IMG/VR virus record: IMGVR_UViG_3300009314_000007 | Coordinates: 43,337 to 107,336 of that record | From: a virus | Length of the DNA: 64,000 nucleotides | Reading direction: 5' to 3' (one strand) | Shown here: piece after piece, positions 3,391 to 63,900 of the stretch | Layout of the letters: every line of letters starts with the position of its first letter | Numbering within the stretch: the first letter of the stretch is position 1 | The notes under the pieces: generated by a model | What the model was told of the DNA's origin: nothing | The model's input: only the letters and a program-made list of their open reading frames with translations | The model's database searches: none | Made by a program: the position numbers and the translations under genes

Positions 3391-3404
3391 CAATAACGTT
3401 ATTG
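3391..3404. repeat. dispersed 14-bp palindrome, copy 1 (CAATAACGTTATTG), intergenic
   Basis: Perfect palindrome; 7 related copies in window. Confidence 0.9.
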
Positions 3405-3425
3405 CTAACGAAGTGAGAGGAAAGC

Positions 3426-4598
3426 ATGGCGAACAATAAGCGGCTCGCGATGATCACGGCGGATCTTCACCTGGACGATTACGCTTGGGCTGATCGACCG
3501 ACACTGTCGGGAGATTCCCGGTGGTCGTTTCAGTGGATCTGCGATAAGGCGGAGAAGTTTGGCAATCCCAGCGCGGCGAGTCCCAGCTTCTGCGTCATCG
3601 CGGCGGGGGATCTGGTCGAGAAGAAACGAAACGAGTCGGGTCCGGTCCACTTCATTCGGCGCAGGATGGAGCAATTGGAAAACGGCGATCCCAAGTCCGT
3701 GGGCTTCTACTACATTCAGGGGCAGCATGACATGCAGGATGAGCCGTGGTTCGGTTCAGCACACCGCTGGCCGGAGCATATCCACGAGCCATCTGACGGT
3801 TATTGCTATGATCTGGGCGGGTACAAGCTGTGGGGAATCGACTGGACGCCCCCAGATCGCTTGCAGGAGGCCCTGGATAGGGTTCCCGAGGACACGGATA
3901 TTCTGGTCATGCACCAGGTGTGTCACGAGTTCATGGGTTCCGTCGCGGCGCCCGAGTTGAGTTTCGACCGCATTCCGCATGCGAGGTTGCTGATCGTTGG
4001 CGACTACCACAAGCGAGTGAAGCTCGAAACACGGGGAGCCCACGGACAAAAGTTGACGGTGCTTTCTCCGGGCAGTACGAATCTGCGGGAGATCAGCGAG
4101 CAGCGGGACAAGGCGGTCTTCATGCTGTACGAGGATCTGAGTGTGAAGGTCGCGAAGATTCCCACGAGGGCGGTGATCGAGACGCCGGACCTGCTCATGG
4201 AGGAGGCGGTCGAGGATCTCCTGGAGGAACTCGATACGTTAATCGACGCCGCGCAGGTTCGGGCGGTGAAAGCCGGTTTGCCCGTGGAATTGCACAGGCC
4301 GATCATCTACGTTCGGTATCATCGACGACTGGTCGGTACGGAGCCGCGGCTACTGAAGGCCATTGACCGGCGAGCCCACCTGTTCACCAAGGTGATCGGG
4401 GAGCTGGCGGAGGGTGAGGAGGGTGAGTCCGAGGAACTCGATCTGGGTGAGGAGGGTCTCACACTTCTCGGGTGCTTGCCGGAGGAGGTGGACGAAGACC
4501 AGGAGCCGGGGGTGTTTGAAGGTCTCCAGCGACTGCTCAGCACGGACGAGCCCGCTGTGGAGTTGTCCAAGATGCGGGCGGAGCACTTGGATGCTTAG
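3426..4598 (+). CDS. sbcD: Mre11/SbcD-like metallophosphoesterase exonuclease
   Basis: ADLHL, AGDL, GQHD, MHQ, GDYH, SPGS motifs; near SbcC gene. Confidence 0.9.
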   Translation: MANNKRLAMITADLHLDDYAWADRPTLSGDSRWSFQWICDKAEKFGNPSAASPSFCVIAAGDLVEKKRNESGPVHFIRRRMEQLENGDPKSVGFYYIQGQHDMQDEPWFGSAHRWPEHIHEPSDGYCYDLGGYKLWGIDWTPPDRLQEALDRVPEDTDILVMHQVCHEFMGSVAAPELSFDRIPHARLLIVGDYHKRVKLETRGAHGQKLTVLSPGSTNLREISEQRDKAVFMLYEDLSVKVAKIPTRAVIETPDLLMEEAVEDLLEELDTLIDAAQVRAVKAGLPVELHRPIIYVRYHRRLVGTEPRLLKAIDRRAHLFTKVIGELAEGEEGESEELDLGEEGLTLLGCLPEEVDEDQEPGVFEGLQRLLSTDEPAVELSKMRAEHLDA

Positions 4599-4821
4599 GT
4601 TCTATGCCGAGAGCGACGGCGACCCGGGGCGTATGTCTTACTACGTTGTGGACTCGTACGCCGATCCCCTGGGTGATCATCGTCGCACCGATTGTGCAAG
4701 TCGCGGGGAGGCTCGCAAGCTGGCTCGCGAGTTTAATGCAAACCCCCCGTGGCCCGCTTGGGACACAATTCAAGAGGCTCGGGACAAGGAGAAAGTGGAT
4801 GCCAAAGCAACCGATAAGTAG
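4591..4821 (+). CDS. hypothetical protein
   Basis: GGAG RBS; fills gap after sbcD. Confidence 0.5.
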   Translation: MLRFYAESDGDPGRMSYYVVDSYADPLGDHRRTDCASRGEARKLAREFNANPPWPAWDTIQEARDKEKVDAKATDK

Positions 4822-5149
4822 AGGGAAGTTCGAGGAGCATACTGGCTTGGTGTTAGAGGCAGTTGTGGACGGAGCCATCGTGTTTCACGATAGCGCAGCG
4901 ATGTTCGAGCAACTCGCTGAGGAGCAACGGAGTTGGTTCGTAGCGCATGCAAGTTTACGATTGCGGTACATGTATGCGAATAAGCCCCAGTTTCGCCAGC
5001 TACTAAGAGGTTCGGGAAATGGTGGGCGGGATAGGTGCTACACGTGGGTCGAGCACTGGCTCGAAGCGTACTTGCGGGACCCGCAGGTTTATCGGGAGAG
5101 ACACTCATCTACGATGTTTGATGGGGAGGAGACAATATGCGGCTGTTGA
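4799..5149 (+). CDS. hypothetical protein
   Basis: AAGGAG RBS; overlaps start of sbcC. Confidence 0.6.
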   Translation: MPKQPISRGKFEEHTGLVLEAVVDGAIVFHDSAAMFEQLAEEQRSWFVAHASLRLRYMYANKPQFRQLLRGSGNGGRDRCYTWVEHWLEAYLRDPQVYRERHSSTMFDGEETICGC

Positions 5150-7299
5150 GTTTGGAGTTGCGGCAGATATGCCAACACGAGTCGCTTAACTGGGATTTCC
5201 AGCCAGGACTGATCGGGATCTTTGGTCCCAACGGTTCCGGTAAGTCCACCGCGATCAATGCGGGGCCGTATTTGGCCCTGACGAACGATTACGCTCGGGT
5301 CGTGGGCGGCAAGGCGGGGGCGATCCGCCAGCAGGCGGAGGCTCACGAGCTGTCCTGGGTCAAGCTCTGCGCAGAGCACCAGGGCACTGAGTTCGAGGTA
5401 AGCCGGACGCTGCAACCCGGCAGCAAGCATCGACTGGTGTGTCCGGCGTTGGAGAAACCGCTCACCAAGGCCAACGAGATTCGGGATTGGCTTGAGCGGA
5501 CGCTTGGGATGGATCGCACGCTCACCGACGATTATCTGTTTGTCGGGCAGAGCGATCTCACCGCTCCATTCAACGAGTCTTCGACGGTGCGAGCTAAGAG
5601 TTTGGCCCGGCTGTGCCGGACCACGCACGGCGAGGCGTGTTGGGAGGCCCTGGGTAAGCAGATTGAAGCTGATCGGCCGCTTGCGGGCCAGGTGATCGAC
5701 ACCTCCGATGGGATTCGCAAGCGGGTCAGTGAGTACAAGGCCAAGCTGAAGCAGGCCAAGAAGGAGAAGTCCGCAGCCAGCAAGAGGCGGCTCAAGGCGC
5801 AGGACCGCAAGATTGCGCAGAATGCTTTGGATCGACGGGCGACTCGCGACCGCTTGCTCGAAGAGCGCGTCGGGGCAAAGTCAAAAGAGACTGGGCTGCT
5901 CGAAAAGACCAAGGCGGCTTTCAGGGCGGCCCGGGAGGCGGAGCACGCCGCGGCGGTGGCCCAGGAGAACCTGACGACTGCGGAGGGTTTGGAGCGGGAT
6001 GCCGCGGAGCAGCTCAGGACGTATCGAGCCGACAAGAAGAGGTGGGAGCGGCGGCTCGCGAGGGAGACCGAGTACAACGAGCTGTCGCAGAGAGTCATAC
6101 CGTCGCCGCAGAAGCCGGATCTCCCGGATGAGGACACTTTGAGAACCAACTGGTCCGAAGCGAAAGCGGATGTGACTCGGTGGTCCAAGTGGATCGAGAC
6201 CGCCGAGGCGGGCCTGGCTGAGTGCCACGAGTGTGGTTCGGATCTGCGCGGGGACGCCGCGGCGGAGAGGCTGGCGACTATCAAGCGGGAGCTTCCGGCT
6301 CGCAAAAAGGAGGAAGAGGCTCGCCACGAGCAGCTCGCCGTGTGGCGGAGGTATAACGCGGCTCTGACCAAGGCCGCCGCCGAGACCACGGCGCACAACA
6401 AGCTACTGACCGCTGCACGTGTTGCGGCGGAAGAGTACAGCGAGGTCGAGGAGCCGGAGGAGATCAACGAGGGTCACTTACAGGCCACCGTCAGCGCGGC
6501 GGTGGCTGCTCGCATACTGTTCAGCGGCGACCCGAACGACGAGGACGACGGGGGGCTCATTGGCGCGAGCCGAGAGGCTGACGAGAAGAAGAGCGAGTTG
6601 AAGGGCAAGCACCGTGCGGCCAAGGAGCGACTCGCCGAGATCGAGAAGCAGCTCCAGGAGAATGAGGTTGGTGACGAGGAGGTCGCCGAGGCTCAGCGTC
6701 TCCTCGACATTGATGCGGAAGCGAAGCAGCAGGTTGCTGTCGCGGAGAACTCGATTGCGGTTCATCAGAACTCGATTGCGGAGCAAGAGGAAGAACTGGG
6801 GCGGGTACAGGCTTTGCTCTCCAGGAGCGGGCGGGCCCAGACTTGGTTGCGAAAACAGGAGAGAATGCGAGAGGTATTGCACCGGGACAACTTGCCCCGA
6901 CGAGTGCATCGACGAGCGCTACGTCGCATGGAAAGCGGCATAAACGAGACTTTGGAGCAGTTCGATAGTCCCTTCTGGGTGCGAACAGATGAGGAGTTGC
7001 GCTTCATAGCGCATTTCCCAAATGGTACCGTGATGCCGGGAGAAGGCCTGTCGGGCGGGGAGCAATCCGTGCTGGCGTTGGCTTACCGGTGGACTCTGAA
7101 CTCCATGTTCGCGAGTCAAATTGGTATGCTGGTGTTGGACGAGCCTACGGCTTGGATCGACGCAAGAAACTTGGACTGTCTGGAAGCGGCTCTGACCAAC
7201 CTACGGGGACTGGTGCGAGCCCAGGGATACCAAGTGATCATCATTACACACCACCAACAACTCCAGAGGGTGTTTGACCAGGTGATCACACTCGAATAA
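5137..7299 (+). CDS. sbcC: Rad50/SbcC-like SMC ATPase
   Basis: Walker A GPNGSGKS, coiled coil with central CHEC zinc hook, signature LSGGE, Walker B LVLDEP, IITH. Confidence 0.93.
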   Translation: MRLLSLELRQICQHESLNWDFQPGLIGIFGPNGSGKSTAINAGPYLALTNDYARVVGGKAGAIRQQAEAHELSWVKLCAEHQGTEFEVSRTLQPGSKHRLVCPALEKPLTKANEIRDWLERTLGMDRTLTDDYLFVGQSDLTAPFNESSTVRAKSLARLCRTTHGEACWEALGKQIEADRPLAGQVIDTSDGIRKRVSEYKAKLKQAKKEKSAASKRRLKAQDRKIAQNALDRRATRDRLLEERVGAKSKETGLLEKTKAAFRAAREAEHAAAVAQENLTTAEGLERDAAEQLRTYRADKKRWERRLARETEYNELSQRVIPSPQKPDLPDEDTLRTNWSEAKADVTRWSKWIETAEAGLAECHECGSDLRGDAAAERLATIKRELPARKKEEEARHEQLAVWRRYNAALTKAAAETTAHNKLLTAARVAAEEYSEVEEPEEINEGHLQATVSAAVAARILFSGDPNDEDDGGLIGASREADEKKSELKGKHRAAKERLAEIEKQLQENEVGDEEVAEAQRLLDIDAEAKQQVAVAENSIAVHQNSIAEQEEELGRVQALLSRSGRAQTWLRKQERMREVLHRDNLPRRVHRRALRRMESGINETLEQFDSPFWVRTDEELRFIAHFPNGTVMPGEGLSGGEQSVLALAYRWTLNSMFASQIGMLVLDEPTAWIDARNLDCLEAALTNLRGLVRAQGYQVIIITHHQQLQRVFDQVITLE

Positions 7300-7308
7300 G
7301 GTAGCTTG

Positions 7309-8367
7309 ATGGATTCTGCTCAAAGAATCGACGAACTGCGATTGCACACCGCCGGTAAAGCGATTTGGTTTAGCGAGCCGGGGCGAGACTCGTTTACGTC
7401 TCCGCTGTCTCCGGCTGAGTTTGTTCGACAGAAGGTGATTGCGGAGGCAGACTCCGTGCGCCTGCTGGGTTGCAGAGAGAACGCTCAACTGATCGTAGAG
7501 TTGCACTCACGGCGATGCGCGACGCGGAGACCTGTGAACGTGTTACTCGGGAATCCAAACTGGAGGCCGGGTAACGAAGATCGGACTGAAGATGTCTTTC
7601 ACTGCATGATGGGACAAGAGGAGTCTCCGAGTGTTGGCGGATGGCATCAACTCACCGAGAAGGATTATGTAACCTTCGCGCTCATCGCGGAGTTCGAGCA
7701 AGCAGGCGGCCAATGCACATCGCTGGTGGAGCGGTTTCTGCGCGTTCACCCGGCGTGGCCCGCCTTGTCTTTTCTGCCGGACCTGAGCAAGGTTGCGGCG
7801 TGTCGGTTGTTGACGGCGATTGTCGATCCGCGCTGGCATGTGGACCCGCACAAACCAGATCGCGATGCGAGATTGCGGAGTTTCCTTGGGCTGGGTGGCA
7901 ATGGTTTGGAAGTTGTGCAGAGTCTTCTTATGGGCGAGCCTAGTCTCGATTGGCCCCGCCGCGTAGCCCGGGCGAAGGATGTGCTCGACACATGGACTGG
8001 TGGTGACTACACGCCACCACCACAAGATGTGGTGGGCCCTTCGGGTTTTCTGTGGAGAGTGTATTATGGCGTTGCGGAAGCCAAGGATGGCTATCGGGGG
8101 ATGCTTCGCGCATGCCACGTGTTTTTGAGGTTCCTTCGCAGCGTCTGGTTGGATAGTCTGACGGCAACTCGGGTGTACGAGTCGGTTGTTCGACGTGTTG
8201 TTGATCGGCCGAGAGGCAAGCCGGATTGCCGAGAGAAGAGGCGACGGCTGTTGCCTTGCCGCGCGGGCTCTTCGACTTTGTTCTTGCCGGAGCATTTCTT
8301 TCGGTTGACGGCCGAGGTTGAGGCGTGGAGACAGCACTTGACTAGATGTCGAGGGAATACGGCTTAA
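7309..8367 (+). CDS. IS110/Tas-like Nop-domain protein, apparently lacking catalytic residues
   Basis: HPAWPALSFLPDLSKVAACRLLTAIVDPRW...LRSFLGL resembles the IS110 Transposase_20/Nop helix-hairpin region; C-terminal LRACHVFLRFLRSVW resembles the R..K.FL..LW..W helix of phage IS110/Tas-like proteins. Confidence 0.6.
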   Translation: MDSAQRIDELRLHTAGKAIWFSEPGRDSFTSPLSPAEFVRQKVIAEADSVRLLGCRENAQLIVELHSRRCATRRPVNVLLGNPNWRPGNEDRTEDVFHCMMGQEESPSVGGWHQLTEKDYVTFALIAEFEQAGGQCTSLVERFLRVHPAWPALSFLPDLSKVAACRLLTAIVDPRWHVDPHKPDRDARLRSFLGLGGNGLEVVQSLLMGEPSLDWPRRVARAKDVLDTWTGGDYTPPPQDVVGPSGFLWRVYYGVAEAKDGYRGMLRACHVFLRFLRSVWLDSLTATRVYESVVRRVVDRPRGKPDCREKRRRLLPCRAGSSTLFLPEHFFRLTAEVEAWRQHLTRCRGNTA

Positions 8368-8393
8368 CCGTTTGGTTGGGAGGGATGGCAGGG

Positions 8394-8948
8394 ATGCGCG
8401 AGCTGGGAGTTAGAATCAAGTTCATTTCAGCCTGCTTGGGTAACGTCAAGCGGGAGTGTTACGTGCGAGGTAGGAAACGCTCGCACTACTTGCTTCCGCG
8501 AAGTCCCAATGGGCAGGTGACGTTTTTGAATACCTGGTGGCAGGCGATTTTGAAGCGAGCCGCCGAGCTTCTGTGCAAGCACCACACAGAGGTGAAGAAA
8601 ATCCGTTTCGCTTTGGAGGTGGAGGGATTGTCACACCCGCTGGAGGACGTGACCGAGGAGATTGACGGCAAGAAGGTGACGACGTTACGAGGGCACTTTC
8701 ATCGGTACTACAAGGCGGATCGCTTTGCCAAACACGAAGCGTTCTTTCCCGGTTCGGTGATTGAGCTTCGGTGTATCGTGCCGCAGAAGATCAGCGACGA
8801 TGATTTTCGGCGGTTGTTGGAACTGGCTGGGAAGTATTGCGGGATCAGTCCTGCGTGTCCCAATGAGTACGGGTTTTTCACCGTCGAGTCGATTCAGTCA
8901 ACGGGACGTGGCAAGGAAAACAAAGAAAAAGAGCCGACGATCTCCTGA
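8394..8948 (+). CDS. standalone RAMP superfamily (Cas7/Csm3-like RRM) protein
   Basis: N-terminal beta strand VRIKFISACLG, helix TFLNTWWQAILKRAA, HEAFFPGSVIELRC strand, terminal glycine loop AGKYCGISPACPNEYGFFTV. Confidence 0.65.
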   Translation: MRELGVRIKFISACLGNVKRECYVRGRKRSHYLLPRSPNGQVTFLNTWWQAILKRAAELLCKHHTEVKKIRFALEVEGLSHPLEDVTEEIDGKKVTTLRGHFHRYYKADRFAKHEAFFPGSVIELRCIVPQKISDDDFRRLLELAGKYCGISPACPNEYGFFTVESIQSTGRGKENKEKEPTIS

Positions 8949-9055
8949 GCAAAGGAATCGTCGGCTCCGTGCGGCAAGTGCCGGACCGTGGTGTTTTTCC
9001 CCACACACACGGAAATTTTACGGTTCTTCGCTGTGCATGCAACCCCTGGTAGGGG
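8931..9055. other. three-hairpin structured region over RAMP stop codon and spacer (candidate ncRNA, processing site or terminator)
   Basis: GAGCCGACGAT 8931-8941 pairs perfectly with ATCGTCGGCTC 8957-8967; CCGTGGTGT/ACACACACGG 8986-9012; CCCCT/AGGGG 9043-9055. Confidence 0.5.
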
Positions 9056-9072
9056 ATTTGGAGTATGCGAAT

Positions 9073-10593
9073 ATGGCGAAAGTCTCGGTGAGGATAAGGA
9101 AGGATGGCGGCCTTCTCGCGATTGATAGTCCGAGCGAGACCGTTTTCGGCATTTTGACCGAAGCTCTTTCCTACACAAGAGTTGTGCAGCTTCGTGGCAA
9201 GGAGGCGAAGATGCACGGGAGTAACGTGAAGACGGTTCCGATTGCCTGTTACACCTACACACCCTCACGAGAGGGGTTTCAGGCTCGGCTTATTACGAGC
9301 AGCGGTTTTCTCTGGACCGTGGCCCGCGTGCTTCGCGAGCACGGTTACCGTCCGGTGGTTAAGGACGAGCGGCCGGAGGACGCCAAGAAGTTCAAGCCCG
9401 CTTGGCAGCGCTTGCGGCGGGTGGACTGGCGATACAAGCAGCGATTCTGCATCGACCAGATGCTCAAGTATTCGTGCGGGCGGATTGACTGCCCGCCGGG
9501 GTACGGCAAGAGCTATTTGATGCGGCTGTTTTGCCAGTTACTGCCGGGTGCTACGACAGTGGTCTCCACCCACTCCACCGACGTGCTGGAGCAGATCCAC
9601 GACGAGCTGTCCAAAAGCATTCCCCGGGTGGGGCTGATCTACGGCAAGCGGAAGATCGAGGGAGATGGTATTCACGTGGTGTCGGGCAAGTCGCTGCATC
9701 GTGTGGATTGGCCGACAGATATTTTGTTGGTGGACGAGGTTCACGAGTGGGCCACGGACGATTATCTGCGTCGTGTTGGCGCGAAGTCATTTCAGAACGC
9801 TCGCAAGTACGGGTTCAGTGCCAGCCAGGCGCATCGGATGGACCTGGCTCATTTCGAGTTGGAAGGTCCGTTTGGCCCAGTGATCGCGAAGGTCTCGTAC
9901 CAGAAGGCCGTGGAGCACGGGTGTGTCGTGCCGATACAGATCTGGTGGCGAAGCGTGAACCTGCGCGGCAACCCGGCGGAGGGCGTGAAGAATCCGGTCG
10001 AGAGAGACCGGTGGGGCTTGTGGACTAATGGGGCCCGGAATCAGCTCATCGCGGAGGACGCTCGGCAGTTCGACGAGAACGATCAAGTGTTGATCGCCGT
10101 GGAGACTATCGAGCACGCGATGAATCTCAAACGATTCTTGCCGGAGTTTTCTGTTTGTCACAGTGAGCATGGGCTCTCGGACGAGGATCGTTTGTGGTAC
10201 GTCACCAACGGGTTTATCCAGCCAAATGAGCCGCGTATGACTGCGGAGCGCCGGTACAAGCTCAAGAAAGCCTTTGAGGATGGACGGTTGAAGAAGGTGA
10301 TTGCGAATAGCGTGTGGAAGCGCGGTGTGGACTTCAAGCAACTGGCGGTGCTGATTCGTGCTGACGGGAAGAACAGCGCTATTTCTGACACACAGATTCC
10401 GGGACGGACTTCCAGGATCTGCGATGCAACCGGAAAGGAGTTCAGCGTCGTTGTTGACTACCTCGACGAGTTCGACGACCGTTTGCACGGGCGAGCGCTC
10501 GACAGGGCGTCGAACTACTGTGCGAATGGCTGGAAGCAAGTTCAGCCGAGAACGAGAGAAGACAGCAGACAGGGGCGACTGTTCAATGAATGA
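9073..10593 (+). CDS. superfamily 2 DExH helicase (UvsW/XPB-like)
   Basis: CPPGYGKS, LVDEVH, GFSAS, RGVDF, QIPGRTSR motifs. Confidence 0.9.
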   Translation: MAKVSVRIRKDGGLLAIDSPSETVFGILTEALSYTRVVQLRGKEAKMHGSNVKTVPIACYTYTPSREGFQARLITSSGFLWTVARVLREHGYRPVVKDERPEDAKKFKPAWQRLRRVDWRYKQRFCIDQMLKYSCGRIDCPPGYGKSYLMRLFCQLLPGATTVVSTHSTDVLEQIHDELSKSIPRVGLIYGKRKIEGDGIHVVSGKSLHRVDWPTDILLVDEVHEWATDDYLRRVGAKSFQNARKYGFSASQAHRMDLAHFELEGPFGPVIAKVSYQKAVEHGCVVPIQIWWRSVNLRGNPAEGVKNPVERDRWGLWTNGARNQLIAEDARQFDENDQVLIAVETIEHAMNLKRFLPEFSVCHSEHGLSDEDRLWYVTNGFIQPNEPRMTAERRYKLKKAFEDGRLKKVIANSVWKRGVDFKQLAVLIRADGKNSAISDTQIPGRTSRICDATGKEFSVVVDYLDEFDDRLHGRALDRASNYCANGWKQVQPRTREDSRQGRLFNE

Positions 10594-11281
10594 GCCGCGG
10601 AGAAGAACTCGGAGGCCGCGTCAATCGCTGGTGGAGGATCTGGCCCAAGCGGTGCGGACTGAGTACATCAACCAGCGGAGGATGTGGCGGTGTTTGTCCG
10701 GCAGCCGTCCGGATTACTTGCCGGGCAGGCAATGGGACGAGGGCAGGCGGCTGGAGAGTGGCAGGTACTCACTACCGGTCTGGCCGAAGATTGCCCAGTT
10801 CTTGCTCGACAACGAGATTGTGGACTACCCGGAGTTCATACGGAAGATCTTCGAGAACAGGGGGCCGCACCGGCCGGTTCCTCAGCCGAATCACCTGCAT
10901 GGTCCGGCAGCCTTGAGAATTTGGAAGGAGGTAATACCCAAGAAAGAGTTGCGAGCCCGGGTGAGACAGGCCTGGGCGCAAGAGAAAAAGGCGTTTGCGA
11001 TAGCGGCGCTCGATCAGCAGGCCTATTTCCCCGATGCTTCCGAGCACGAGTGCCTGCGGTCGGTAATTGTGGACGACACAGTGAGCCTCTCGCCGCTGTA
11101 TCGTTATTGTGTGGCGATTGGTGAGGGCCTGCCCCGCCACGCATCGTTCTACAAGGAAATGGCCTTACGGCAATACTGTCTCGCACCGTCGCTCTACGAC
11201 GAAGTGTGGGGCGGTTGGATTCCTGAGCAACTGAAAACAGAAGCCGAAGCGATGCGACTGTCGCTTCCGGAGGATCACTGA
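10586..11281 (+). CDS. hypothetical protein between helicases (possible replication accessory factor)
   Basis: Translationally coupled on both sides; function inferred from position only. Confidence 0.65.
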   Translation: MNEPRRRTRRPRQSLVEDLAQAVRTEYINQRRMWRCLSGSRPDYLPGRQWDEGRRLESGRYSLPVWPKIAQFLLDNEIVDYPEFIRKIFENRGPHRPVPQPNHLHGPAALRIWKEVIPKKELRARVRQAWAQEKKAFAIAALDQQAYFPDASEHECLRSVIVDDTVSLSPLYRYCVAIGEGLPRHASFYKEMALRQYCLAPSLYDEVWGGWIPEQLKTEAEAMRLSLPEDH

Positions 11282-14132: not shown

Positions 14133-17100
14133 CAAAAGAACGCAGAAAGCTGATTCGCAAAGGAGGCCCCGGGCTTGCCGCGAAGACGAAAGAGCCGGTC
14201 ACCACTAACGTTATTGGAGAGGCTGACAAGAAGCCGAAGAAGAAAGCGGTGTTGGCGAAACGTAGGGACCAGCCAGCTCCGACGAGGTCCCGGCAACCCG
14301 CCGGAAATCTGTTTCCTTTGAACGCTCCGGGGATGCCGCTACCTGGCCCGGACTTGTTGGAGTACGCCGCGGCGCTTGGCGGAACTCACGAGATAGTCGG
14401 GAAGAGCCGAAGCGCTCGCCTGACGCAGGCGGGTCAGACGCTGCCAGCCCTATTCAGGAAGATCCTTTATTCGTTTGGCGACATAGCCGTCCCGTTTAAG
14501 CACAAAGGTAAGCGTCACGACTTGTCGGTGGTAAGTGGCCACGTGTGGGGAGATCCGTTTGGAGAGTGCCGCGGGCCTCGTCAGGCGGACGTGATGGTGA
14601 TCGCCAAGATGCTTGGTGACGAAGAGAACAATCAGGGAAGGAACATGATCGGCAACTCCGGGCAGTTATTTCTGGAGACCTGTCGAGAGCTGGGACTCCC
14701 TCGGATTTCTCGCTGGTACGTTACCAACCTGATGAAGACCCTGCATCCGGAGGCGGATTCCGGGGGCACGAGATTGACTGCGGCGATGATCAAGGAGTGG
14801 CTACCGTTTCTGCACCAGGAGATCCGTATCGTGCAGCCCAAGTACATTCTGTGCTTGGGGGCTGATGCGAGCGCGGGTCTGTTGGAGTACGAGGGCGGGT
14901 TCAAGAGAAAGGACAAGTTCCGAGCCTCGATCAGTAACATGCAGGGCCGCATTGTCGAGTGGGAGTACCCGATCAGTCGCAAGGATGAGGGCAAGATCCA
15001 GTACAAGCAGGCACTGGTCATGTCCATCACGCATCCCGCCGCCGTGCTGCACGCCCCTGAGCAGGAGGACGTGTACGTCAACGGCGTAGCCAGGTTCGGG
15101 CAGATGATCAAGGGAATGCGGTGGGACAAGGAGGAGGAGGGTCTTGATCACAGGACGATTACTTCGCTCGTCGAGTTGAAAGAGCTGTACCACGAGATCA
15201 GAGCGGACTGCGAGGATAACTTGCTCGGGATCGACGCCGAGTGGCACGGGGATCACCCGCAGAACAAGGGCAGCTACCTGCGCACTATACAGATTTCCTG
15301 GAAGCACAAGGCCGCGGTCTGCATCAGGCTACGTGCCCCAGGCGGTGCCTGGGCTTTCGCGGGGTGCGGCCGAAAGACTGTCGCGAAATGGGTTAAGAGG
15401 ATTTGTAAGGGAAGGAGGCTCGCAGGGCACTTCTTCTCTGCCGACCTCGAATGGCTGATCGACTTCGGTATTGATCTTCGCGAGGAGTTCATGGTCCCGG
15501 ACACTTGGACGGAGTACATGAAGCGGTGGCGGCGTAAGAAGGGTTGCGGGTTCGATACTGGTCTAGCCGCACACGGCATAGCAGAGACCGACGATTTCAG
15601 CCTAACATCACTCACGCTGCGACATACGACTGCTCCTCGTTACGATGTAGCGCTGGTGAAGTGGGTTGCGGATTACTGCAATGAGCACAAGCTGAAGAAG
15701 GAGGAGCTGGAGGGTTATGGGGAGTGTCCTGACGATGTGCTGATTCCCTACGGCATCTACGATGCCGACGTGACTCGGCGAATCGCGGTGAAGTTCGCTA
15801 GGAGGTTATTCAAGGATCGTTTCAACAACAACTGCTGGGAAGCGTTCTGGATGTCCATGCGGGCCCAACCGGCAGCTTTGGAGATGAATATGAGCGGCGT
15901 GCAGATCGACCGGGAGCGACTTGATCGTCTCACGGAGACCTACATGTCGGCCAAGGCCAAGCTGGAGAACACAGTGCGCACTTGGGCTCGGTGGCCCGAT
16001 ATGAATCTGAACTCGGTGTTTCATATTCGCGAGTTTCTCTACGGGGAGCGGTACAATGGGCACGAACACCCTGAGGGTACACCTCCCATTAGGAAGCGTC
16101 CGGCAGACGGCAGGTCCCTGAAGCTCAATCCGATCCTCACTACGGATAAGCGGCCCATGCGGTGGTCCGAGGTGGTGCAGAAGGGATTGGAAGACCAGAA
16201 GACGCCGAGCACGGACAAGATGTGCCTGGCCATCTTGGCGCAGGACAATCAGGCGGTCCGGAAATGGCACCCTACGAAGCTGGATTACCGTACGTACGAT
16301 TTCAGCAAGCAGGTCACCTGGGTTCGGGATTACCGGTTCATCAGTCAGGTGCTCAAGAGCATGCTGAGGACTCCGAAGATCGAGAAGCTGCCGGACAAGA
16401 CCGAGGCGTTCTTGAAGAAAGACGACTACTACGTCTACCCTGGCGGGCTCCCCGCCGCGGTTTGCGACGATAGCCGGGTGCGAACCCACTTCTATCAAAC
16501 CAAGGAGACCGGTCGATGGGCCTCGGCCCGTCCGCCGCTGCAAAACCTGACTAAGCGAAGGGAGGTGGATTACAAGCGGATTCTGGGTCCAGATTACAAG
16601 TGGGCACTTAGGACTATCATTACGGCTCGGCCGGGGCACTTGCTTCTGGAGGCGGATATTACCGGCGCCGAGCTGGCGGGCATGGCGATTATGTCTGGCG
16701 ACAAGAGGATGATCGAGCACGCGCAGAGAAACGTGCTGGCGGAAGACGATCCCAATTACTACGACATCCACAGCCACGTTGCCGTGCTGGCGTTCCGCTT
16801 GGACTGTGAGCCCACCAAGGGCGGTCTGGAATTGATTGGGATGAAGCACATGCGGCTCGTGGCCAAGAGTGTGATCTTCGGTATCGCTTACGGGCGGGGA
16901 GCCAAGGCCATCGCGTTGGCTGCGAAGGAGGAGGGAGTCAATATCACGGTCGAGGAAGCGCAGCGGGTGATCGACACGATCTTCCGGATGTACCCGAGAC
17001 TGGTGCCGTTCTTCGAGGCTTGTCGTGCTCGCTCCAGAGATCCTCGGTGGATCTGTGGTTGTCTTGGTCGTTTTCGTCGTTTCCCGGTTGCCCGAGAATG

Positions 17101-17578: not shown

Positions 17579-17598
17579 TCTCTCAACATCTTGTACCG

Positions 17599-23453: not shown

Positions 23454-24428
23454 ATGGCGAAGTCAACAATCGCTTTGACCACGGAACAGAAGAAGCTGTT
23501 CCAGATGATGCCGAAGCCACTTCAGGCTATGGCTGCGAAGATGAAGAGGGCTACTGACGAGATTGTCAGCCACGAGGTGCTCGGCAAGTACGGGCTCGGC
23601 GAAGAGGTCCGGCGCGTGACCAACAACGAGCGCAAATACGGCGAGGCCGCGGTGCCCACACTGGCCGCGTTTTTGGGCGAGCACCCCAACGTGCTTTGGG
23701 ATTGCCAGCGGTTCTGCAACGCTTACACTCGCACGGAAGTCGAGCGGATGATCAGGCGAGTGGGCGCAGGCGGCCAGCGGATCACTTTTGGGCACCTGAG
23801 AGTGCTTTCCGGGTTGGAGGGCACCGACGCCCTGAAAAAGCGGGTCAGGCTGGAAAAGGCCATTTTGGAGGAGGGGCTTTCGGTTCGCGCGTTGGAGAAG
23901 GCCGTCCAGGCGATACTCGGCTCGCGCACCACGAGTGCTACTCCAGGGCGCAACGTTCGCGTGGCCAAGGATGTGTTGTCGGGTCTTGCCGACATGACCA
24001 CCAACACCAAGAAGCTCGTCAACCGAGTGCCGTCCTGGGAGAAGGGCGTGTTCGTCCGCGTGGCTGCGGGCGACGGCGTGACTAAGAAGACGGTTACGCA
24101 GCTCGAAGCGTCGAAGAAGGTCATGGACGATTCCATCGCGAAGCTCGAAGGTGTGTCCTCGCAACTAGACAAGGCGATCTCCCAGGCAAAGAAGGAGCTT
24201 GCGAAGCCTAATCGACCCGCACCGGCCAAGAAGAAGACGGCTCCGAAGAAGAAGGTCGTGAAGAAGAAGGTCGTGAAGAAGGCGAAGAAGAAGACGACCA
24301 AGAAGAAGAAGGACCCGAAGAAGGCGGCCAAAAAGAAAGTCGTGAAGGCGAAGAAGAAGGTCAAGAAGAAGCGCACGAGCGCTACCGACCGGATTCAGGC
24401 CGCGAGGCGGAAGCGACGACCGGCGTGA
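23454..24428 (+). CDS. ParB/DUF1016-N-like helical DNA-binding protein with histone H1-like Lys-rich tail
   Basis: YGEAAVPTLAAFLG (HTH-like), ITFGHLRVL, EEGLSVRALEKAV (Spo0J DBD-like); coiled coil; about 70-aa K/A/V tail; AGGAAGG RBS. Confidence 0.65.
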   Translation: MAKSTIALTTEQKKLFQMMPKPLQAMAAKMKRATDEIVSHEVLGKYGLGEEVRRVTNNERKYGEAAVPTLAAFLGEHPNVLWDCQRFCNAYTRTEVERMIRRVGAGGQRITFGHLRVLSGLEGTDALKKRVRLEKAILEEGLSVRALEKAVQAILGSRTTSATPGRNVRVAKDVLSGLADMTTNTKKLVNRVPSWEKGVFVRVAAGDGVTKKTVTQLEASKKVMDDSIAKLEGVSSQLDKAISQAKKELAKPNRPAPAKKKTAPKKKVVKKKVVKKAKKKTTKKKKDPKKAAKKKVVKAKKKVKKKRTSATDRIQAARRKRRPA

Positions 24429-26746: not shown

Positions 26747-27303
26747 GCGAGTCCAATAACGTTATTGCGAATCCCGAGGACACTAATCCTCGGGACGGAT
26801 GGAGGGTCAAGGAGTTCGAGGCGTCCATGGACGATTCGATCTCGTTGTGGCTGGAGTTCGTGCAGGACGGCGTTCCGCGGGAGGAGCATAGTTTCTGCTT
26901 GCGGAGATGGCTGCAAGACACCAGCATCAATTCCGGCCAGCGGGAGCGGTTGCGGGCCGTGGTGACGGCGATTGCTCGGTATGCGAATCTGGGCGGGCCA
27001 CTGTCGGCCCTGGATGACGTTGTCCGCAGGATGGAGGACACCGGCCTGGTGATTGACTGGGCGGGCTGGAGCGTGCTGGACACGCATCAAGAGCCGGATG
27101 ATGTGATTCACTACCTGGTCAACGGGGCTGGGGAGGTGTTGGTGTGGGCCGAAGACTCGTATTTCGAGCTGACGACGTTGGACGAGTTGAATCAGGATTT
27201 GTTGCATGAGAGCGAGGACGTACCCAATAGGGAAGATCCTCCACCTGAAGGGCCAGATCCTATCGGACCCGGAGGTGGAGTGCTTCCTGGACCAAGAGAT
27301 TAA
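26743..27303 (+). CDS. acidic hypothetical protein
   Basis: ATGA overlap. Confidence 0.65.
   Translation: MSESNNVIANPEDTNPRDGWRVKEFEASMDDSISLWLEFVQDGVPREEHSFCLRRWLQDTSINSGQRERLRAVVTAIARYANLGGPLSALDDVVRRMEDTGLVIDWAGWSVLDTHQEPDDVIHYLVNGAGEVLVWAEDSYFELTTLDELNQDLLHESEDVPNREDPPPEGPDPIGPGGGVLPGPRD
26754..26767. repeat. dispersed palindrome copy 3 (CAATAACGTTATTG), inside 5' end of CDS
   Basis: Perfect copy. Confidence 0.9.
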
Positions 27304-37001: not shown

Positions 37002-38309
37002 ATGCCCGATTTCAAAGACACTCAGCGGCAGCTCCCTCCCCTTGAGTATTATCGGGAGATGGACAAGGAGGCGGTTCAGAAGATCGCCGACGAGACGACC
37101 AAGCTCATCTCCGGGGAGAAGGGCGGGGATCGTTTCCTCAACAACGTTTCCGGGGTTATCTTGGGCTCGCTTCAGGCGTACCAGGTCGCTCGCACGGCAT
37201 TGAGTCGTCGATGCCAGGAGTTGGGGGTTAGCACGGACGTGGAGGGCTGGCTTGTCCAGTCGATGCACGGCCACGTAGGCACCGAGGAGGTGACCCGACA
37301 GCAGGTGCTCAGCAAGCTGAAGGACCTGGTGCTCCCGTTTCTGATGGCGGAGTTCCAGGCCGAGGGTGAGCGGGAACAGTCCGCGGTGGTCCAGGCCGAC
37401 AAGGCCGAGGATACATCCAGACGACAGCAGGATGTGCCCATCGGTTACCCCGCGGCGCCTTTGTGGCCCAAGGAAGACGCGGGAGAGGCCATGATGTCCC
37501 GGGAGCGTCCACTAACGTTAGTGGGAGATCCGGGCGTGATCGACGTGTGTCTGAACCACATTCAGACGAGGTGCCTCACGAGCAGCTCAGGCGGTTTTCG
37601 TCCCAACGTGTTGAGACTGACCACACGGCTGAAAGAGCACAACGTGCTGCACAAGAAGGGCGACGAGAAGCAATACTTCGAGGTGGGAGCCAATCGCTGG
37701 GCCAACTGTGGTGCCAGTGGGAGTCGTCTCAAGCGAGAACTGACGCCTTGGCTGCGGTTGCTCCGCAAGCGCCGAGTGGACCTCCTGATTATCGAGGATC
37801 TGCCGTTGTTTGTGGGCGGTTCGGATCGGCTACCTCCCCAGCAGCGTGCCGGGCAGGGGCTACGAGCACTGACCCGCTGGGCCGAAGAGACGGGATGTGC
37901 TGTGGTGGCCGCCGTCCCGCTGGAGCGAGAGAAAGACAAGAAAGCCTCCGAGCTGGTGCATCCTTCGCTGGACGGCACCTGGTCGAATCTGGAAGTGTAT
38001 TCCAATCTGGTGCAGCTTGATGTGGCGGGGAATACTAGCGATGAGGAGACATACGTACTGTTTGCTCAGCAACATGGCGACGACAGGACCTGCGAGGTTT
38101 TGGAGTCCGCGGTGAGCAAGAAACTTATTGACGACTGGAGGAAACGTGATAACGCAGATTCCGGAGATGATAGTGATCGGGTACACGGTGAGAAACCGGC
38201 CAGGCCTGTGGCAGGTCCTGGGAGACCCGCAACCCCCGCAAAATTACGGGGCGGACGCGGCCGAAAAGTGGCGAAGAGAAAAGCTGCCAGACATAAAGGC
38301 AAAGGTTGA
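37002..38309 (+). CDS. hypothetical protein with degenerate RecA/DnaB-like C-terminal fold
   Basis: RRVDLLIIEDL and LTRWAEETGCAVVAAV resemble DnaB Walker B/H3 regions; no intact Walker A. Confidence 0.5.
   Translation: MPDFKDTQRQLPPLEYYREMDKEAVQKIADETTKLISGEKGGDRFLNNVSGVILGSLQAYQVARTALSRRCQELGVSTDVEGWLVQSMHGHVGTEEVTRQQVLSKLKDLVLPFLMAEFQAEGEREQSAVVQADKAEDTSRRQQDVPIGYPAAPLWPKEDAGEAMMSRERPLTLVGDPGVIDVCLNHIQTRCLTSSSGGFRPNVLRLTTRLKEHNVLHKKGDEKQYFEVGANRWANCGASGSRLKRELTPWLRLLRKRRVDLLIIEDLPLFVGGSDRLPPQQRAGQGLRALTRWAEETGCAVVAAVPLEREKDKKASELVHPSLDGTWSNLEVYSNLVQLDVAGNTSDEETYVLFAQQHGDDRTCEVLESAVSKKLIDDWRKRDNADSGDDSDRVHGEKPARPVAGPGRPATPAKLRGGRGRKVAKRKAARHKGKG
37510..37523. repeat. dispersed palindrome copy 4 (CACTAACGTTAGTG), mid-CDS
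   Basis: Perfect palindrome with symmetric A>C and T>G changes. Confidence 0.88.
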
Positions 38310-44465: not shown

Positions 44466-44630
44466 ATGCACGAGAAAAGAGGTATCATCGAAGCTGGTAG
44501 GACAAACCCGGAACGCGCGAGTGATCCGAAGAACGAGGAAAAGCAGGCATCCGTCGAGCAGCTTGACGACGACGTGACCAAGCGCGCGGCGGACGCAGTG
44601 GCCAGCGAGTTCCAAGAGGAAGTCCAATAA
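44466..44630 (+). CDS. 54-aa hypothetical protein (absent from ORF track)
   Basis: Manual translation MHEKRGIIEAG...EEKQAS...TKRAA...EEVQ*; fills gap exactly. Confidence 0.55.
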   Translation: MHEKRGIIEAGRTNPERASDPKNEEKQASVEQLDDDVTKRAADAVASEFQEEVQ

Positions 44631-44638
44631 CGTTAATG
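44625..44638. repeat. dispersed palindrome copy 5 (CAATAACGTTAATG), contains the TAA stop of the upstream ORF
   Basis: One mismatch; extended TC...GA flanks. Confidence 0.85.
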
Positions 44639-48923: not shown

Positions 48924-48932
48924 GAGTCGGGC

Positions 48933-51023: not shown

Positions 51024-51548
51024 ATGAACCAGGGATTGGTTTTGATGCCGGTGAGTCCAGGAGAGTTATTGGACCGGTTGACTATTCTGAATGTCAAGCA
51101 GGACAAGCTCGATGGTGATAAGCAGATCGCAGCTTTGGAGTTGTCGATGGAGCTGCACGAGGTGGCTGACCCGCTCCTCGACAAGCCGGGTGTTTCCCTC
51201 GTTGCCGATCAACTGTACGAGATCAACACGCAGTTGTGGGAGGTGGAGGACCATTTGCGGGCTGCTGACGGGCAGGTGTTCCCGATCACTGTCGGGCGGA
51301 CGATTACCGAGGAGACCGTGAGGTATTGCTCGCTGGCTCGGCTCGTTTACAACCTCAACGATCAGCGATGTGGTTTGAAGCGAGAGCTTGATGAGATGCT
51401 TGGCGGTGTCGTCGAGCCGAAACAATACGCCGAATACGAGAGATCCCATGACAGAGGACGCCCCGCGGAAGAAAGTGATCAAGAAGAAGGTCATCAGGAA
51501 AGTGGCGAAGAAGCCCCAGGAAGCCCCCGCGGCGAGCCCCGTGGATGA
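51024..51548 (+). CDS. DUF6165-like protein
   Basis: VSPGELLDRLTIL..K, INTQLWEVED, ARLVY.LND.R..LK, EPKQY. Confidence 0.75.
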   Translation: MNQGLVLMPVSPGELLDRLTILNVKQDKLDGDKQIAALELSMELHEVADPLLDKPGVSLVADQLYEINTQLWEVEDHLRAADGQVFPITVGRTITEETVRYCSLARLVYNLNDQRCGLKRELDEMLGGVVEPKQYAEYERSHDRGRPAEESDQEEGHQESGEEAPGSPRGEPRG

Positions 51549-54027: not shown

Positions 54028-54918
54028 ATGAGCACGTATTCTAAGCCAACTCATCCCAGCTTCATAGACTTAACCGGCCGGAAATTTGGTCGGTGGCTTG
54101 TTATTGCTTACGCGGGTACGCAGTGCGGGTGTAGTCGTTGGTTCTGTTGTTGTGATTGCGGGACCAAAAAAGAACTTTACGGGGCCAGCCTGGTTCGAGG
54201 TCAAACAAAGTCCTGCGGGTGCCTGTATCGCGACGCGCTGCGAGATCGGTACACCACACATGGGCTATCTAGCACCCGAGAATATCGAATCTGGTCTCAC
54301 ATGCGGGATCGGTGCAACAACGTACGGAACCACGCTTATTCGAGGTACGGCGGTCGAGGGATCGGCGTTTGCGCTCGCTGGGACTCAGATTTTAGGGATT
54401 TCCTGGCGGACATGGGCAAGGCTCCTACACGTTTTCATACGCTTGATCGTATCGACGGACAGAAAGGTTACGAAAAGCAGAACTGCCGATGGGCTACTCG
54501 CAAAGAGCAGGCCAGGAACCGGGAAAGCAATCGGCTGGTGACCATCGAAGGAGTTACTAGGTGTGTCGCCGAGTGGTTAGAGATTTCGTCAATTGCCCCG
54601 GGGACTGTTCGCAAGAGACTTGCAAGGGGCTGGGAACCTCGACTTGCTTTTACGTTACCTCCTCTACCCCGCGGGAAGAAACACCTTCTGACCGATACAG
54701 ATCGCAAGGAGCGAAAAAACGCTAGGAACCGGCTTTACCGCGCGGTTGCGGCCGGGAGGGTCGAGAAGCCAGCGCATTGTGAGCAGTGCGGCGCGAAAAG
54801 CGGGGTTGAAGCGCATCACCATCGCGGCTATATTGGTCTCGCAGCCTTGGATGTGCAGTGGCTCTGCACTTCTTGCCACGGAACGGCAGATCTGGCGGTT
54901 CCTCTAATCTCCCAATAA
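54028..54918 (+). CDS. free-standing homing endonuclease with two HNH-like domains (paralog of 47162-48076)
   Basis: Same domain order; YSKPT...FIDL start; LDRIDGQKGYEKQNCRW; CEQC...AHH..Y...WLCTSCH. Confidence 0.88.
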   Translation: MSTYSKPTHPSFIDLTGRKFGRWLVIAYAGTQCGCSRWFCCCDCGTKKELYGASLVRGQTKSCGCLYRDALRDRYTTHGLSSTREYRIWSHMRDRCNNVRNHAYSRYGGRGIGVCARWDSDFRDFLADMGKAPTRFHTLDRIDGQKGYEKQNCRWATRKEQARNRESNRLVTIEGVTRCVAEWLEISSIAPGTVRKRLARGWEPRLAFTLPPLPRGKKHLLTDTDRKERKNARNRLYRAVAAGRVEKPAHCEQCGAKSGVEAHHHRGYIGLAALDVQWLCTSCHGTADLAVPLISQ

Positions 54919-54926
54919 CGTTATTG
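54913..54926. repeat. dispersed palindrome copy 6 (CAATAACGTTATTG), contains the HNH gene TAA stop
   Basis: Perfect copy with C/G extension. Confidence 0.9.
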
Positions 54927-60963: not shown

Positions 60964-60969
60964 AAAACC

Positions 60970-63900
60970 ATGTCGAGACTATTAGGAGGAATGGGCTCTC
61001 CCCTCGGAACACCCGGGATGGGGTCAGCGGCCGTCACAGGGCAGGCGGCGGGCTCACCCGCTGCTGGCGTCAATGGCCAACAGGCTGCGGGGCCGGGACA
61101 GGGCGGAGCAGCCACCGCCGAGAACGTGCAGGCTGAGTTGCCGCAGGCTCAGCAGGCCGCCGGGATGGCTGCTCCACCCGCAGCCCCGCTTCCGCCCCCG
61201 GCGCCGGGTGCGGCGAACCAGATGGACCCCAGTCAGTTGGCACCGCCAGCCCAGGGAGGGACGCCGGGGTTCACGGCCAACAGTCAGGGCATGCAGGTCT
61301 ACCCTCCTGGCCAGGGACCCGTGACCGAGCAGGTGCTTCCACAGCACATGATGGGGCCGATTACGCCCCAATCGCCTCTGAAAATGGGGTCTGGATTGGT
61401 GTCCGAGGGGTCTGTGGAGTCCGGGAGGGCCTCGAAACGCTCCGCGGGTCGTCCGGGACGGTTTGGGTCTCGGAAGGCCGCTCACGGGCTTGTCCGGGAT
61501 CGTCAGACCCTATTGCGGCTTGAAGATGGTCTGTTTGTGACCGCCATGGAGGATAAAATGGCCAAAACGTGTCAAGATAGGCAAGATGGGCCTCGAATAA
61601 GCTCGAAATTCGCTTTTTCCGGGGCCACTCGACCCCCTGCCCTACCCGATGTAACCGATTCGCCAGCTTTCGAGATGAGCCTCCTCCCGTATGGCCGAGA
61701 AAAGGCCGCAGTGATCGTCCCCCTGGCCCTCGGAGGAGCCGCAGGAGGCACGTTGGGAGCCGCCACAGCTCCATCTGGCTCCAGGTTCGAGGGAGCGGGC
61801 AGGGGCATGACGGTGGGCGCAGGAACCGTGGGCGGGATGTACGGCGGGAGCGCTCTGGGCAAGGTCCTGGGCCGGATGGCTGCGCAGGGTCTGCGCATGG
61901 ACCCGGCCACCGCGGCTCGGCTTGGTGAGCTGATCGGAGCGACCGGCGGCGGCATCGCCGGGTTCAAGGGGACACGGGCTCTGACCAAGGACAAGGATGA
62001 CGAGAAGCGGGCCTGGGTTGCTGGTGTGTTGGGACTGCTGGCGGCACATCCCGTGACGTTCGAGAAGGAGGCCAAGGAAGCGGCTATCGGCAGCCACGGC
62101 GTGCCCCTGGTGTCCACCAGCCCAGCGATGCAGAGGTCCACGGCCGGTGAGGGAGACATCAGCGGATTGAAGGTCGCTCCGTGGTCGGTCAACGGCGCCG
62201 ATGCCTGGAAGGGCATTGCTCAGCATCAGCCGAGCGGCGGCGGGAAGGGCCAGACCGCATTCGGCGGTGTCATGGCTCCGCAGGTCGAAAGAGACAATCC
62301 CCCCGTGAAGGGGTATAAGTCAGCCGCGCAGCTTCGTGCAGTGGCAGTCACTCTGCCCGAGGGCAAGTATCGGCAGGACATGGTCAAGATCGCCGCCCTG
62401 GTCGAGAGCGGAGAAGACCTGGCGATGGCTTTGCACGATGTGAAGGGCATCGACCACAAGCACGCCGCCTACCAGGCTCATATCTGGAGGGAGCGTCTTA
62501 GCAACTTGAGGGCTCGGCGAGATCCGGACGGGATCAGCGAGCAGCCGTTCGACAAGCAGGCCAAGGTGCATCCGTTCCGTCCGCTCAACGAAGATCCCGA
62601 GTTCCAGGCCGATCCGGACTACCGGGCGTACGCCGAGTACGTGTTGAGCCGGAAGAAGAAGGCCGAACTGGGAGATCGAGCCAGCGACTTCGCCACCAAG
62701 GTGATCGAGGGCGGCAAGGGCCTGGTCCAGAAAGCCGTAAAGCATCCGGCAGCCAAGTACGGACTTCCCGTAGCAGGCGCCGCGGCGGGTCTGGGCATCA
62801 ACGAGCTACTCCGGACGCTGGCGGAGAAGAAGACCCGGCGGGAGACCGACCCGGACCAGGTCACTGGCGACCGCTGGCTCTGGGGTGGAGCTGGTGCTGC
62901 GCTGGGTGCGGCGCCGTTGGTTGCTCCGTATGTCACGCAGGGCTTAGATAAGCTCAAGACGGCCGAAAGCAATAACGTTAGTGTCATCCCGGACGCCGAG
63001 TTCGACAAAATGTCCAGTTTCTGTCTGGCGTTTGTCAAGCGGGCCGAGCAAGAGGGCTGGGACGACGAGACCATCGTCAAGGCAGCCGTCGTAGCGTCGG
63101 AGTTCGACGAGATCGTGGCCGAGGAACTGGAGCCGCTCACCAAGTTCGCGAGGGGCGGGCTGTTGAGAGGTATCGGAAGTGGCGTCCAGAAGTTCTTGTT
63201 CCGCGGTGGTGGCGGTCGAGCGGTGACTGGAGCCACGAGCAGTCGAGGCGCCAAGCCGTTGGCCAGCATGCTGAGTCGGCAGACGGCACAGCAGGGCACG
63301 TCGATGACGAAGCTCCCCTCGATCCTCAAGGGCACGGCGCCGGGTGCGGCCACGATGGGCGGCAAAGCAAAGCAGACCGCCAACGTGTTGTGGAACAACC
63401 CGGTCACCTCCGCAGTGGCTCGACCAGCGGCCGGATACGTCGGCGGGCAGACCGCGGCGAGAGGGGCCAACGTGCTGGGTGCCGATATTGATCCCCACCG
63501 TGCGGGCTTGGTTGGCGCGGCGGGCATGGGTGCGACCACGCCGCTGGCCCGAGCGAGCTTCCGAAGGGGAGCACATATCGCTCGACCGGTAACGCAAGCG
63601 TACGGGAATCTTCGCACACCGTTCCAGGGTGCCGCCGAAGGCTATGCTCTCGGTCACGGGCTGCGAGCGGCGACGGGCGACGAGAGTATCGACCCCACGC
63701 GGTGGGCAATGGGTGGTGCGATGGCGAGACCCGCAATGAGCTGGGCCGGGCCGAGAATGAAGGGCCTGATACCCACTCGGCTTCGAGAACGCATGGCCAC
63801 GTCGCAGTCCGGTCGATACTTGCAAGGCAAGCTGAGACCGAATGCTCCGTTCGCTAGTATCCGCAATCTCATTGGCAAGCGAGTTGGACAAGTGGGCGGC

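Follow-up and report, generated by a model that had tools for sequence, protein, structure and literature searches.

Evenly spaced, lineage-specific palindromes in a clade of uncultured jumbo phages and a candidate ParB-fold protein that may read them

Introduction

Several systems are known in which a short DNA site recurs over a replicon and is bound by a dedicated protein. The global regulator KorB reads the palindromic site O_B, which is repeated across the IncP plasmid RK2 and often lies near promoters; the protein, which has a CTPase domain at its N terminus and can form a sliding clamp, acts together with KorA and also serves partition with IncC (PMC11790492, PMC13768133). The stoperators of Cluster A phages, bound by the L5 repressor, are present in many copies in promoters and short intergenic spaces and were proposed to stop both the initiation and the elongation of transcription (PMC9283540). 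They are asymmetric 13-mers that are bound by a monomer and must point with transcription, and their specificity differs between related phages (PMC9283540). Cluster O mycobacteriophages contain a 17-bp dyad, TGTTCGG-N3-CCGAACA, whose 34 copies in Corndog are unexplained (PMC4351075). Here, we describe a lattice of 14-bp palindromes, CA(A/C)TAACGTTA(T/G/A)TG, in the IMG/VR virus contig IMGVR_UViG_3300009314_000007 (107,336 bp, hereafter G000) and comparable lattices of other palindromes in its relatives. The window that we analyzed is the right-hand 64 kb of this contig (contig positions 43337-107336), and all coordinates refer to it unless stated otherwise.

The lattice resembles the KorB-O_B system in that its candidate reader has a ParB-family domain and in that a palindromic site is repeated replicon-wide, with many copies near gene starts. 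The half-site TTAGC/GCTAA of one relative, G003, also resembles the O_B core in the oligonucleotide of PMC11790492. It differs from KorB-O_B in that neither a ParB_N/CTPase domain nor a ParA was found and in that the sites are evenly spaced on a phage genome of ~200 kb, with a sequence that varies by lineage. Many genome-wide copies in short intergenic spaces are likewise a property of stoperators, whereas the sites described here are palindromic and regularly spaced, are paired with a predicted ParB-fold dimer, and show no dependence on orientation. The Cluster O dyad differs in sequence, phage group, and density; the Corndog genome is about 70 kb. We found no mention of even spacing for that dyad in its description (PMC4351075).

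Another likeness is to ParB-parS, Noc-NBS, and MatP-matS, 13-16-bp AT-flanked palindromes read by dimers, as we propose here, and the candidate reader shares the DNA-binding fold of ParB and Noc. The Noc site is ATTTCCCGGGAAAT, and both AAATCCGGATTT (the palindrome of the relatives G007 and G008) and TTTTCCGGAAAA (that of G001) resemble it. However, spreading by ParB and Noc requires a CTPase domain, and ParB also depends on ParA; neither was found here. Furthermore, parS is clustered near the origin, whereas the lattice sites tile the genome evenly. We did not find an evenly spaced phage palindrome grid read by a ParB-fold dimer described in the literature.

Results

The palindrome is over-represented and evenly spaced in G000

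G000 is about half of an uncultured jumbo-phage genome, with a GC content of 58.9%, its genes on the plus strand, and a CheckV completeness of 51%. The original prediction, made from the window sequence alone, had listed seven copies of the palindrome with the gaps between them, and we reproduced all of these coordinates and gaps, as well as the statement that the copies differ only at positions 3 and 12. Scanning the whole contig extended the enrichment beyond the window, with 10 copies in full context; two degenerate copies at contig positions 6173 (one mismatch) and 1924 (two mismatches) bring the total to 12. All seven TAACGTTA octamers of the window fall within the 14-mer, compared with 0.15 predicted by shuffled sequences, and the motif is the top over-represented word of G000 at every length from 8 to 12. 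The nine gaps among the ten full copies range from 7.1 to 12.6 kb, with a coefficient of variation of 0.20. This evenness departs from uniform placement (P = 5e-6) and from a random choice of gene starts (P = 1e-5 to 2e-5), so that the predicted enrichment and regular spacing both held up. The seven copies in the window are as follows.

3391..3404: lattice palindrome CAATAACGTTATTG; intergenic, 3 nt past the upstream stop and 21 nt ahead of the ATG of the gene that opens the SbcC module
14203..14216: lattice palindrome CACTAACGTTATTG; 74 nt into the polA open reading frame (ORF) as called, the true start of which may be further downstream
26754..26767: lattice palindrome CAATAACGTTATTG; 7 nt past the upstream stop and 11 nt past the ATG of a 186-amino acid ORF
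37510..37523: lattice palindrome CACTAACGTTAGTG; within a 435-amino acid ORF, 16 nt past an in-frame internal ATGATG
44625..44638: lattice palindrome CAATAACGTTAATG; its TAA is the stop of a 54-amino acid ORF, with the next ATG 11 nt on
54913..54926: lattice palindrome CAATAACGTTATTG; its TAA is the stop of the upstream 313-amino acid ORF, with the next ATG 18 nt on
62970..62983: lattice palindrome CAATAACGTTAGTG; a true intragenic copy, some 2 kb into an ORF that spans 1010 amino acids or more

Related phages carry palindromes of their own

G000 belongs to an uncultured lineage. Megablast with 6 kb of G000 against the INPHARED phage records gave no match, PHROGs hidden Markov models recognized three of 20 proteins (two of them as families of unknown function), and Pfam recognizes few of its proteins. 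The exact 14-mer returned scattered single matches in IMG/VR and zero multi-copy contigs, and TAACGTTA was not enriched in 24 relatives, with a weak hint in G023 alone.

Through polA, we reached a relative of 193 kb, G001 (37% identity, with 16 shared genes in collinear order). The G000 motif is missing from G001, which instead contains 13 perfect copies of TTTTCCGGAAAA, compared with 0.003 expected (16 with one mismatch); these are evenly spaced and mostly intergenic. A conserved 650-amino acid marker (45147-47099) then gave access to closer metagenome contigs and to IMG/VR relatives numbering at least 143, of which many measure 180-230 kb. The records of 12 relatives were assembled from 20-kb pieces, giving 13 genomes with G000. 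Ten of the 13 (G000, G001, G002, G003, G005, G007, G008, G018, G021, and G022) have their own AT-flanked, massively over-represented palindrome. Those of the relatives other than G001 are listed below.

G018 (complete, 224 kb, terminal repeats): GATCYN-AAAACCGGTTTT-NRGATC, 35 copies
G003: GATGTA-ATTAGCGCTAAT-TACATC, 14 copies
G007 and G008: AAATCCGGATTT, 18 and 19 copies
G002: AAAAGTACTTTT, 15 copies
G005: TAAGTACTTA, 8 copies
G021: TCAAAA-(GCGG/CCGC)-TTTTGA, 8 copies
G022: TAAATTCYRGAATTTA, 5 copies

Searches for perfect palindromes, general words, and spacer dyads revealed no lattice in G014 and G023. A dyad in the latter, TGTAA-N6-TTACA (~37.6-38.5 and 53.9-54.0 kb), proved to be false, as it reflects collagen-like Gly-X-Y coding repeats. 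The one candidate in G004, TAGAA-N6-TTCTA, is weak.

In all six genomes tested, the evenness of the sites beats the gene-start null, with P values from <2e-5 to 0.018, and the sites are spread regularly over the entire genome rather than clustering in a centromere region. Several site positions are conserved across the differing spellings, namely upstream of the gene for the candidate reader described below, upstream of the opening gene of the SbcC module, and upstream of polA. Because positions are held across lineages with different palindromes, we conclude that the grid is old; sites and candidate reader would have changed together, and the lattice system would be ancestral to this clade of ~200-kb phages.

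The sites lie preferentially between genes and at gene 5' ends

The placement given for each copy in the original prediction was right, in that 3391 is intergenic, 44625 and 54913 provide TAA stops, and the others are inside ORFs as called. Its conclusion that the motif is not tied to promoters is not supported, because intergenic DNA and the 5' ends of genes are strongly enriched in copies. Five of the seven window copies lie within 75 nt of a gene start, so the sites cannot be regarded as unrelated to gene starts, and only those at 37510 and 62970 are clearly internal. With gene calls based on codon usage, 9 of the 12 sites in G000 are intergenic (P = 6e-5); the corresponding shares are 25/35 in G018 (P = 5e-14) and 11/14 in G003 (P = 4e-9).

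The sites of G018 typically occupy the 30-50-bp spacer between co-directional genes; the left arm then holds the stop codon and the right arm the ribosome-binding site. In this genome, the polA orthologue is directly preceded by a site, and the first ~62 residues of the G000 polA product as called are unmatched in a relative. Orthologues of the first gene of the SbcC module have the palindrome of their own lineage at the 5' end in four of seven genomes. Other sites are found at convergent gene ends (37809, 56959, and 73417 in G001; 47593 and 130152 in G018), indicating that these are not promoters of the adjacent genes.

The sites are conserved and have the properties of duplex DNA targets

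G007 and G008 are 85% identical overall, and each of the 18 sites of G007 has a positional orthologue in G008. Identity is 97.2% over the 20-bp windows around these sites and 87.0% over their flanks (P = 4e-11), a comparison that covers the intragenic copies as well. The copy at 44625 is matched exactly in L130, a relative of 88% identity, whereas the DNA upstream of it is unrelated. The expectation that the sites would be conserved among relatives is thus confirmed and, judged from these alignments, the sites are under purifying selection. The homology between G000 and L130 begins almost exactly at the palindrome (44300-44640 compared with L130:3575-3910), and a conserved repeat of this kind may act as a junction for module exchange.

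The variable arm positions show no covariation in G000, G018, or G003. The 24-mer of the 35 G018 sites takes two forms that mirror each other (GATC-CA-core-GA-GATC and its complement), so that pairing between positions 5-6 and 19-20 falls below the chance level. The orientation of the form is independent of gene direction. The mirror forms may reflect avoidance of a perfect long palindrome. As the arms do not covary and the half-sites vary independently, the sites appear to be read as duplex DNA by a dimer and not as a hairpin, which agrees with the proposal that they are targets of a dimeric protein. Stable hairpins or terminators were not enriched beside the sites; the first impression of terminator-like hairpins following them failed a statistical test. 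A scan of positions 1-20000 for sigma-70 promoters and terminators detected nothing at the sites, and the sequence downstream of sites is less structured than average, as it is at translation starts.

A ParB-fold protein is the candidate reader

A dimeric binding protein had been anticipated, and the phage does encode a conserved protein with a ParB/Noc/KorB-type DNA-binding domain that is predicted to form a homodimer and whose gene has a site ahead of it more consistently than any other.

23454..24428, plus strand: candidate reader, 324 amino acids, ParB/Noc-type helix-turn-helix (HTH) DNA-binding domain at residues ~44-158

The ORF was called at 23349-24428, and its real start is the Met codon at 23454. 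The protein has an invariant G-R-K motif, a predicted helical-hairpin dimerization region, and a Lys-rich tail; this long KKKVVKKK tail (24200-24420) is not conserved, as the G003 orthologue has a long acidic tail. The proteome-wide Pfam pass yielded a weak HTH_ParB match to the protein, and nearly all of its orthologues have sub-threshold DUF1016_N or HTH_ParB matches. With a family profile, a single orthologue was identified per genome in all 13, including that of G001, which single-sequence phmmer had missed. The family comprises about 5,150 cluster representatives, almost all of ~300 amino acids.

A PDB sequence search with the candidate reader gave no match. Two structure comparisons were based on an AlphaFold model (predicted local distance difference test score, pLDDT, 78). 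Residues 44-158 of the model align with the DNA-binding domains of Noc, Spo0J, and ParB with Z scores of 8.7-11.5 and root mean square deviations of 2.5-3.8 A over ~100 residues at 19-24% identity. The Z score is ~7 for the KorB DNA-binding domain and 5-6 for SopB, P1 ParB, and VirB. In both comparisons, the top matches are ParB-family DNA-binding domains only. The N terminus of the model is a single helix, and the alignments to ParB chains are limited to their DNA-binding domain.

The parS-like motif had been likened to a partition site, a reading that the gene content does not bear out. The ParB_N CTPase domain (PF02195, GxxRxxA box) has no match at E<=1 in G000 and none over the cut-off in G018, G003, G014, G001, and G007. 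For ParA-type ATPases, there was no PF13614 (AAA_31) match in G000, G018, G003, G001, and G007; PF01656 was not searched separately. Neither component of parS-type partition was thus found in G000 or its complete relatives. We also considered the 5mYOX-associated phage ParB proteins as a model. These keep the CTPase and have lost the DNA-binding domain (PMC13229309), which is the opposite architecture, and they were rejected.

The candidate reader is predicted to homodimerize, with an interaction prediction score from aligned errors (ipSAE) of 0.82 compared with 0.01 for the best control. That mark is reached by 20 of 30 homodimers and by 1 of 23 monomers of solved structure (own alignment, so the counts are rough). 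The dimer runs agree in at least 92% of contacts, with a pLDDT of 84.

Of the 67 orthogroups present in five or more of eight lattice genomes, the reader gene ranks first for a palindrome at the 5' end, being preceded by a site in five of the eight (G018, G007, G022, G002, and G021) against a per-gene background of 2.5-15%; 48 of the 67 orthogroups have no such palindrome in any genome. In G007 and G008, the site ends 12 nt ahead of the reader ATG. Lineages whose palindromes differ have different recognition helices; those of G007 and G008, which share a palindrome, are nearly identical, and the two genomes that have no detectable lattice show a remodeled helix.

Other genes of G000

Upstream of the window, G000 encodes two small proteins with an RNA polymerase alpha C-terminal domain (alpha-CTD; PF03118, best E = 2e-16) at contig positions 23847-24302 and 40904-41335 (also L137:5847-6302 and L138:4904-5335), an unusual cargo for a phage. 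A 251-amino acid protein with sigma-70 region 4 (34615-35370, E = 1e-12) is a possible phage sigma factor; no strand-specific promoter word that would match it stood out in the genome. An N6/N4 DNA methylase gene (36071-37000, E = 4e-50) lies directly 5' of the ORF holding the 37510 copy. Single-sequence phmmer revealed no alpha-CTD, sigma, methylase, or tubulin homologue in G001.

A tubulin/FtsZ-family protein is encoded at 51388-52671 (E = 1e-10). Tubulin was detected in G000, G018, and G007 and was not detectable in G001, G003, and G014. In G018, a palindrome lies 22 nt ahead of the 423-amino acid ORF (204869-206140) that contains the tubulin match.

The family A DNA polymerase encoded by polA (14129-17578) is fused to an N-terminal uracil-DNA-glycosylase-like domain, and G000 carries RecA-like, SbcC, and helicase genes in addition to polA. 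Three glycosyltransferase-like genes (GT2, TOD1/MUCI70-like, and GT1) are clustered at 47904-50620.

Discussion

Our data identify a genome-wide grid of palindromes whose spelling is specific to each lineage. As the best overall explanation, to which we give roughly even weight for and against, we propose that the palindromes are specific double-stranded DNA sites for a phage-encoded homodimer, the 324-amino acid protein encoded at 23454-24428, a clamp-less protein with a ParB/Noc/KorB-family DNA-binding domain that would act without a ParA partner. This protein is probably the site binder, given its fold, its predicted dimerization, and its site-preceded gene. One site would be kept per 6-13 kb over the whole genome, typically in the order stop codon, palindrome, ribosome-binding site, and start codon, with some sites at convergent ends, and site spelling and reader recognition helix would shift together lineage by lineage. 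The bound dimer would serve as an operator or a two-way roadblock, like the promoter-proximal KorB operators or the mycobacteriophage stoperators, and the even spacing would then assign each site a bounded stretch of DNA. That the dimer gates transcription at unit boundaries and regulates its own gene is somewhat more tentative, and we rate it a little short of evenly balanced.

Several observations weigh against this proposal. The fold match is clear of the unrelated rows, yet the domain is all-helical, and the HTH_ParB and DUF1016_N sequence matches of the reader are below threshold. The reader gene of G000 has only an AACGTT core upstream, which is unconvincing as a site, and the same phage encodes other DNA-binding proteins, namely the two alpha-CTD-like proteins and the sigma-70 region-4 protein. 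Some copies lie deep inside genes. Finally, even spacing is not a known property of operators or stoperators and may point to an architectural role; because it is not a known trait of KorB operators, stoperators, or the Cluster O dyad, such a role stays a serious rival.

In that architectural alternative, which we consider unlikely on balance, dimers of this or another protein at the lattice would bridge sites or anchor the DNA into roughly equal loops, with effects on transcription being secondary; a variant would have them position the genome, possibly jointly with the phage tubulin. Spacing that beats a random choice of gene starts in six genomes suggests a physical role limited by distance, and the copies within genes and at convergent junctions fit such a role, as do the long helical hairpin of the reader and its Lys-rich tail in G000, typical of non-specific DNA binders. 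A purely architectural role would not need the preference for intergenic DNA and gene 5' ends, however, and the tail is not conserved. Tubulin is encoded in only part of the clade, and neither a CTPase domain for spreading nor a ParA was found. A bolder form of the idea takes the lattice as a physical ruler, on which clamp-less ParB-fold dimers every 6-13 kb bridge or insulate segments and split the ~200-kb genome into uniform domains, through which transcription would be coordinated with replication or packaging; this we hold to be rather more doubtful. It is improbable that the sites are promoter or activator elements for another factor (the sigma region-4 protein, the alpha-CTD-like proteins, or a host regulator), each heading an operon. 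Most copies do precede a ribosome-binding site and start codon by 3-40 nt, G000 encodes proteins that could be such factors, and the sequence downstream is less structured, as at translation starts. However, the sites are two-fold symmetric, whereas transcription is one-directional, and the slight asymmetry seen in G018 ignores gene direction. The spacers are also too short for a separate sigma-70-type promoter, the promoter scan was empty at the sites, some copies are at convergent gene ends, and sigma and alpha-CTD homologues were not detectable in G001, the sole other lattice genome searched.

Regular spacing would also suit dispersed initiation of replication, and the sites might act as scattered origins, as places of priming or loading, or as hot spots of module exchange in a phage that carries RecA-like, SbcC, helicase, and polA genes; the homology to L130 that begins exactly at a site would fit as well. 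However, the surroundings of the sites show neither DnaA-box-like or iteron structures nor strand asymmetry, the GC skew of the window is monotonic, and no initiator protein is linked to the sites; mosaic breakpoints are an expected by-product of conserved intergenic repeats. We regard this explanation as highly improbable. Palindromes between genes also recall RNA hairpins (terminators, or processing and stability elements) or DNA cruciforms, an interpretation that we find barely credible, since the arms lack covariation in three genomes, with pairing below chance in G018, the stems would be AT-rich and weak, and stable hairpins are not enriched adjacent to the sites. The cores AACGTT, TCCGGA, ACCGGT, AGCGCT, and AGTACT are classic 6-bp palindromes, and a methylase is encoded in the window, as would be expected of restriction-modification or methylation targets. 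Yet the 6-mers occur outside the lattice at about the expected frequency in 6/6 genomes tested, so restriction-modification is not the cause, and the conserved unit is 14-24 bp long; scarcely any likelihood is left to this explanation.

Gene regulation and DNA organization in jumbo phages are largely unknown. If our proposal is true, one small dimer and a grid over a 200-kb genome would constitute a simple layer of genome-wide control or organization for these phages. The clade suits the study of a DNA-binding protein that co-evolves with all of its sites, as it offers natural specificity swaps, with at least nine palindromes and matched reader variants and several positions held constant. A defined function for the reader would also annotate a mobile-element family of ~5,000 representatives, in which a ParB DNA-binding domain occurs without the CTPase switch. 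Should the ruler idea be the true one, these ~5,000 related proteins of ~300 amino acids would represent a widespread, undescribed class of viral chromatin organizers whose specificity co-evolves with sites genome-wide.

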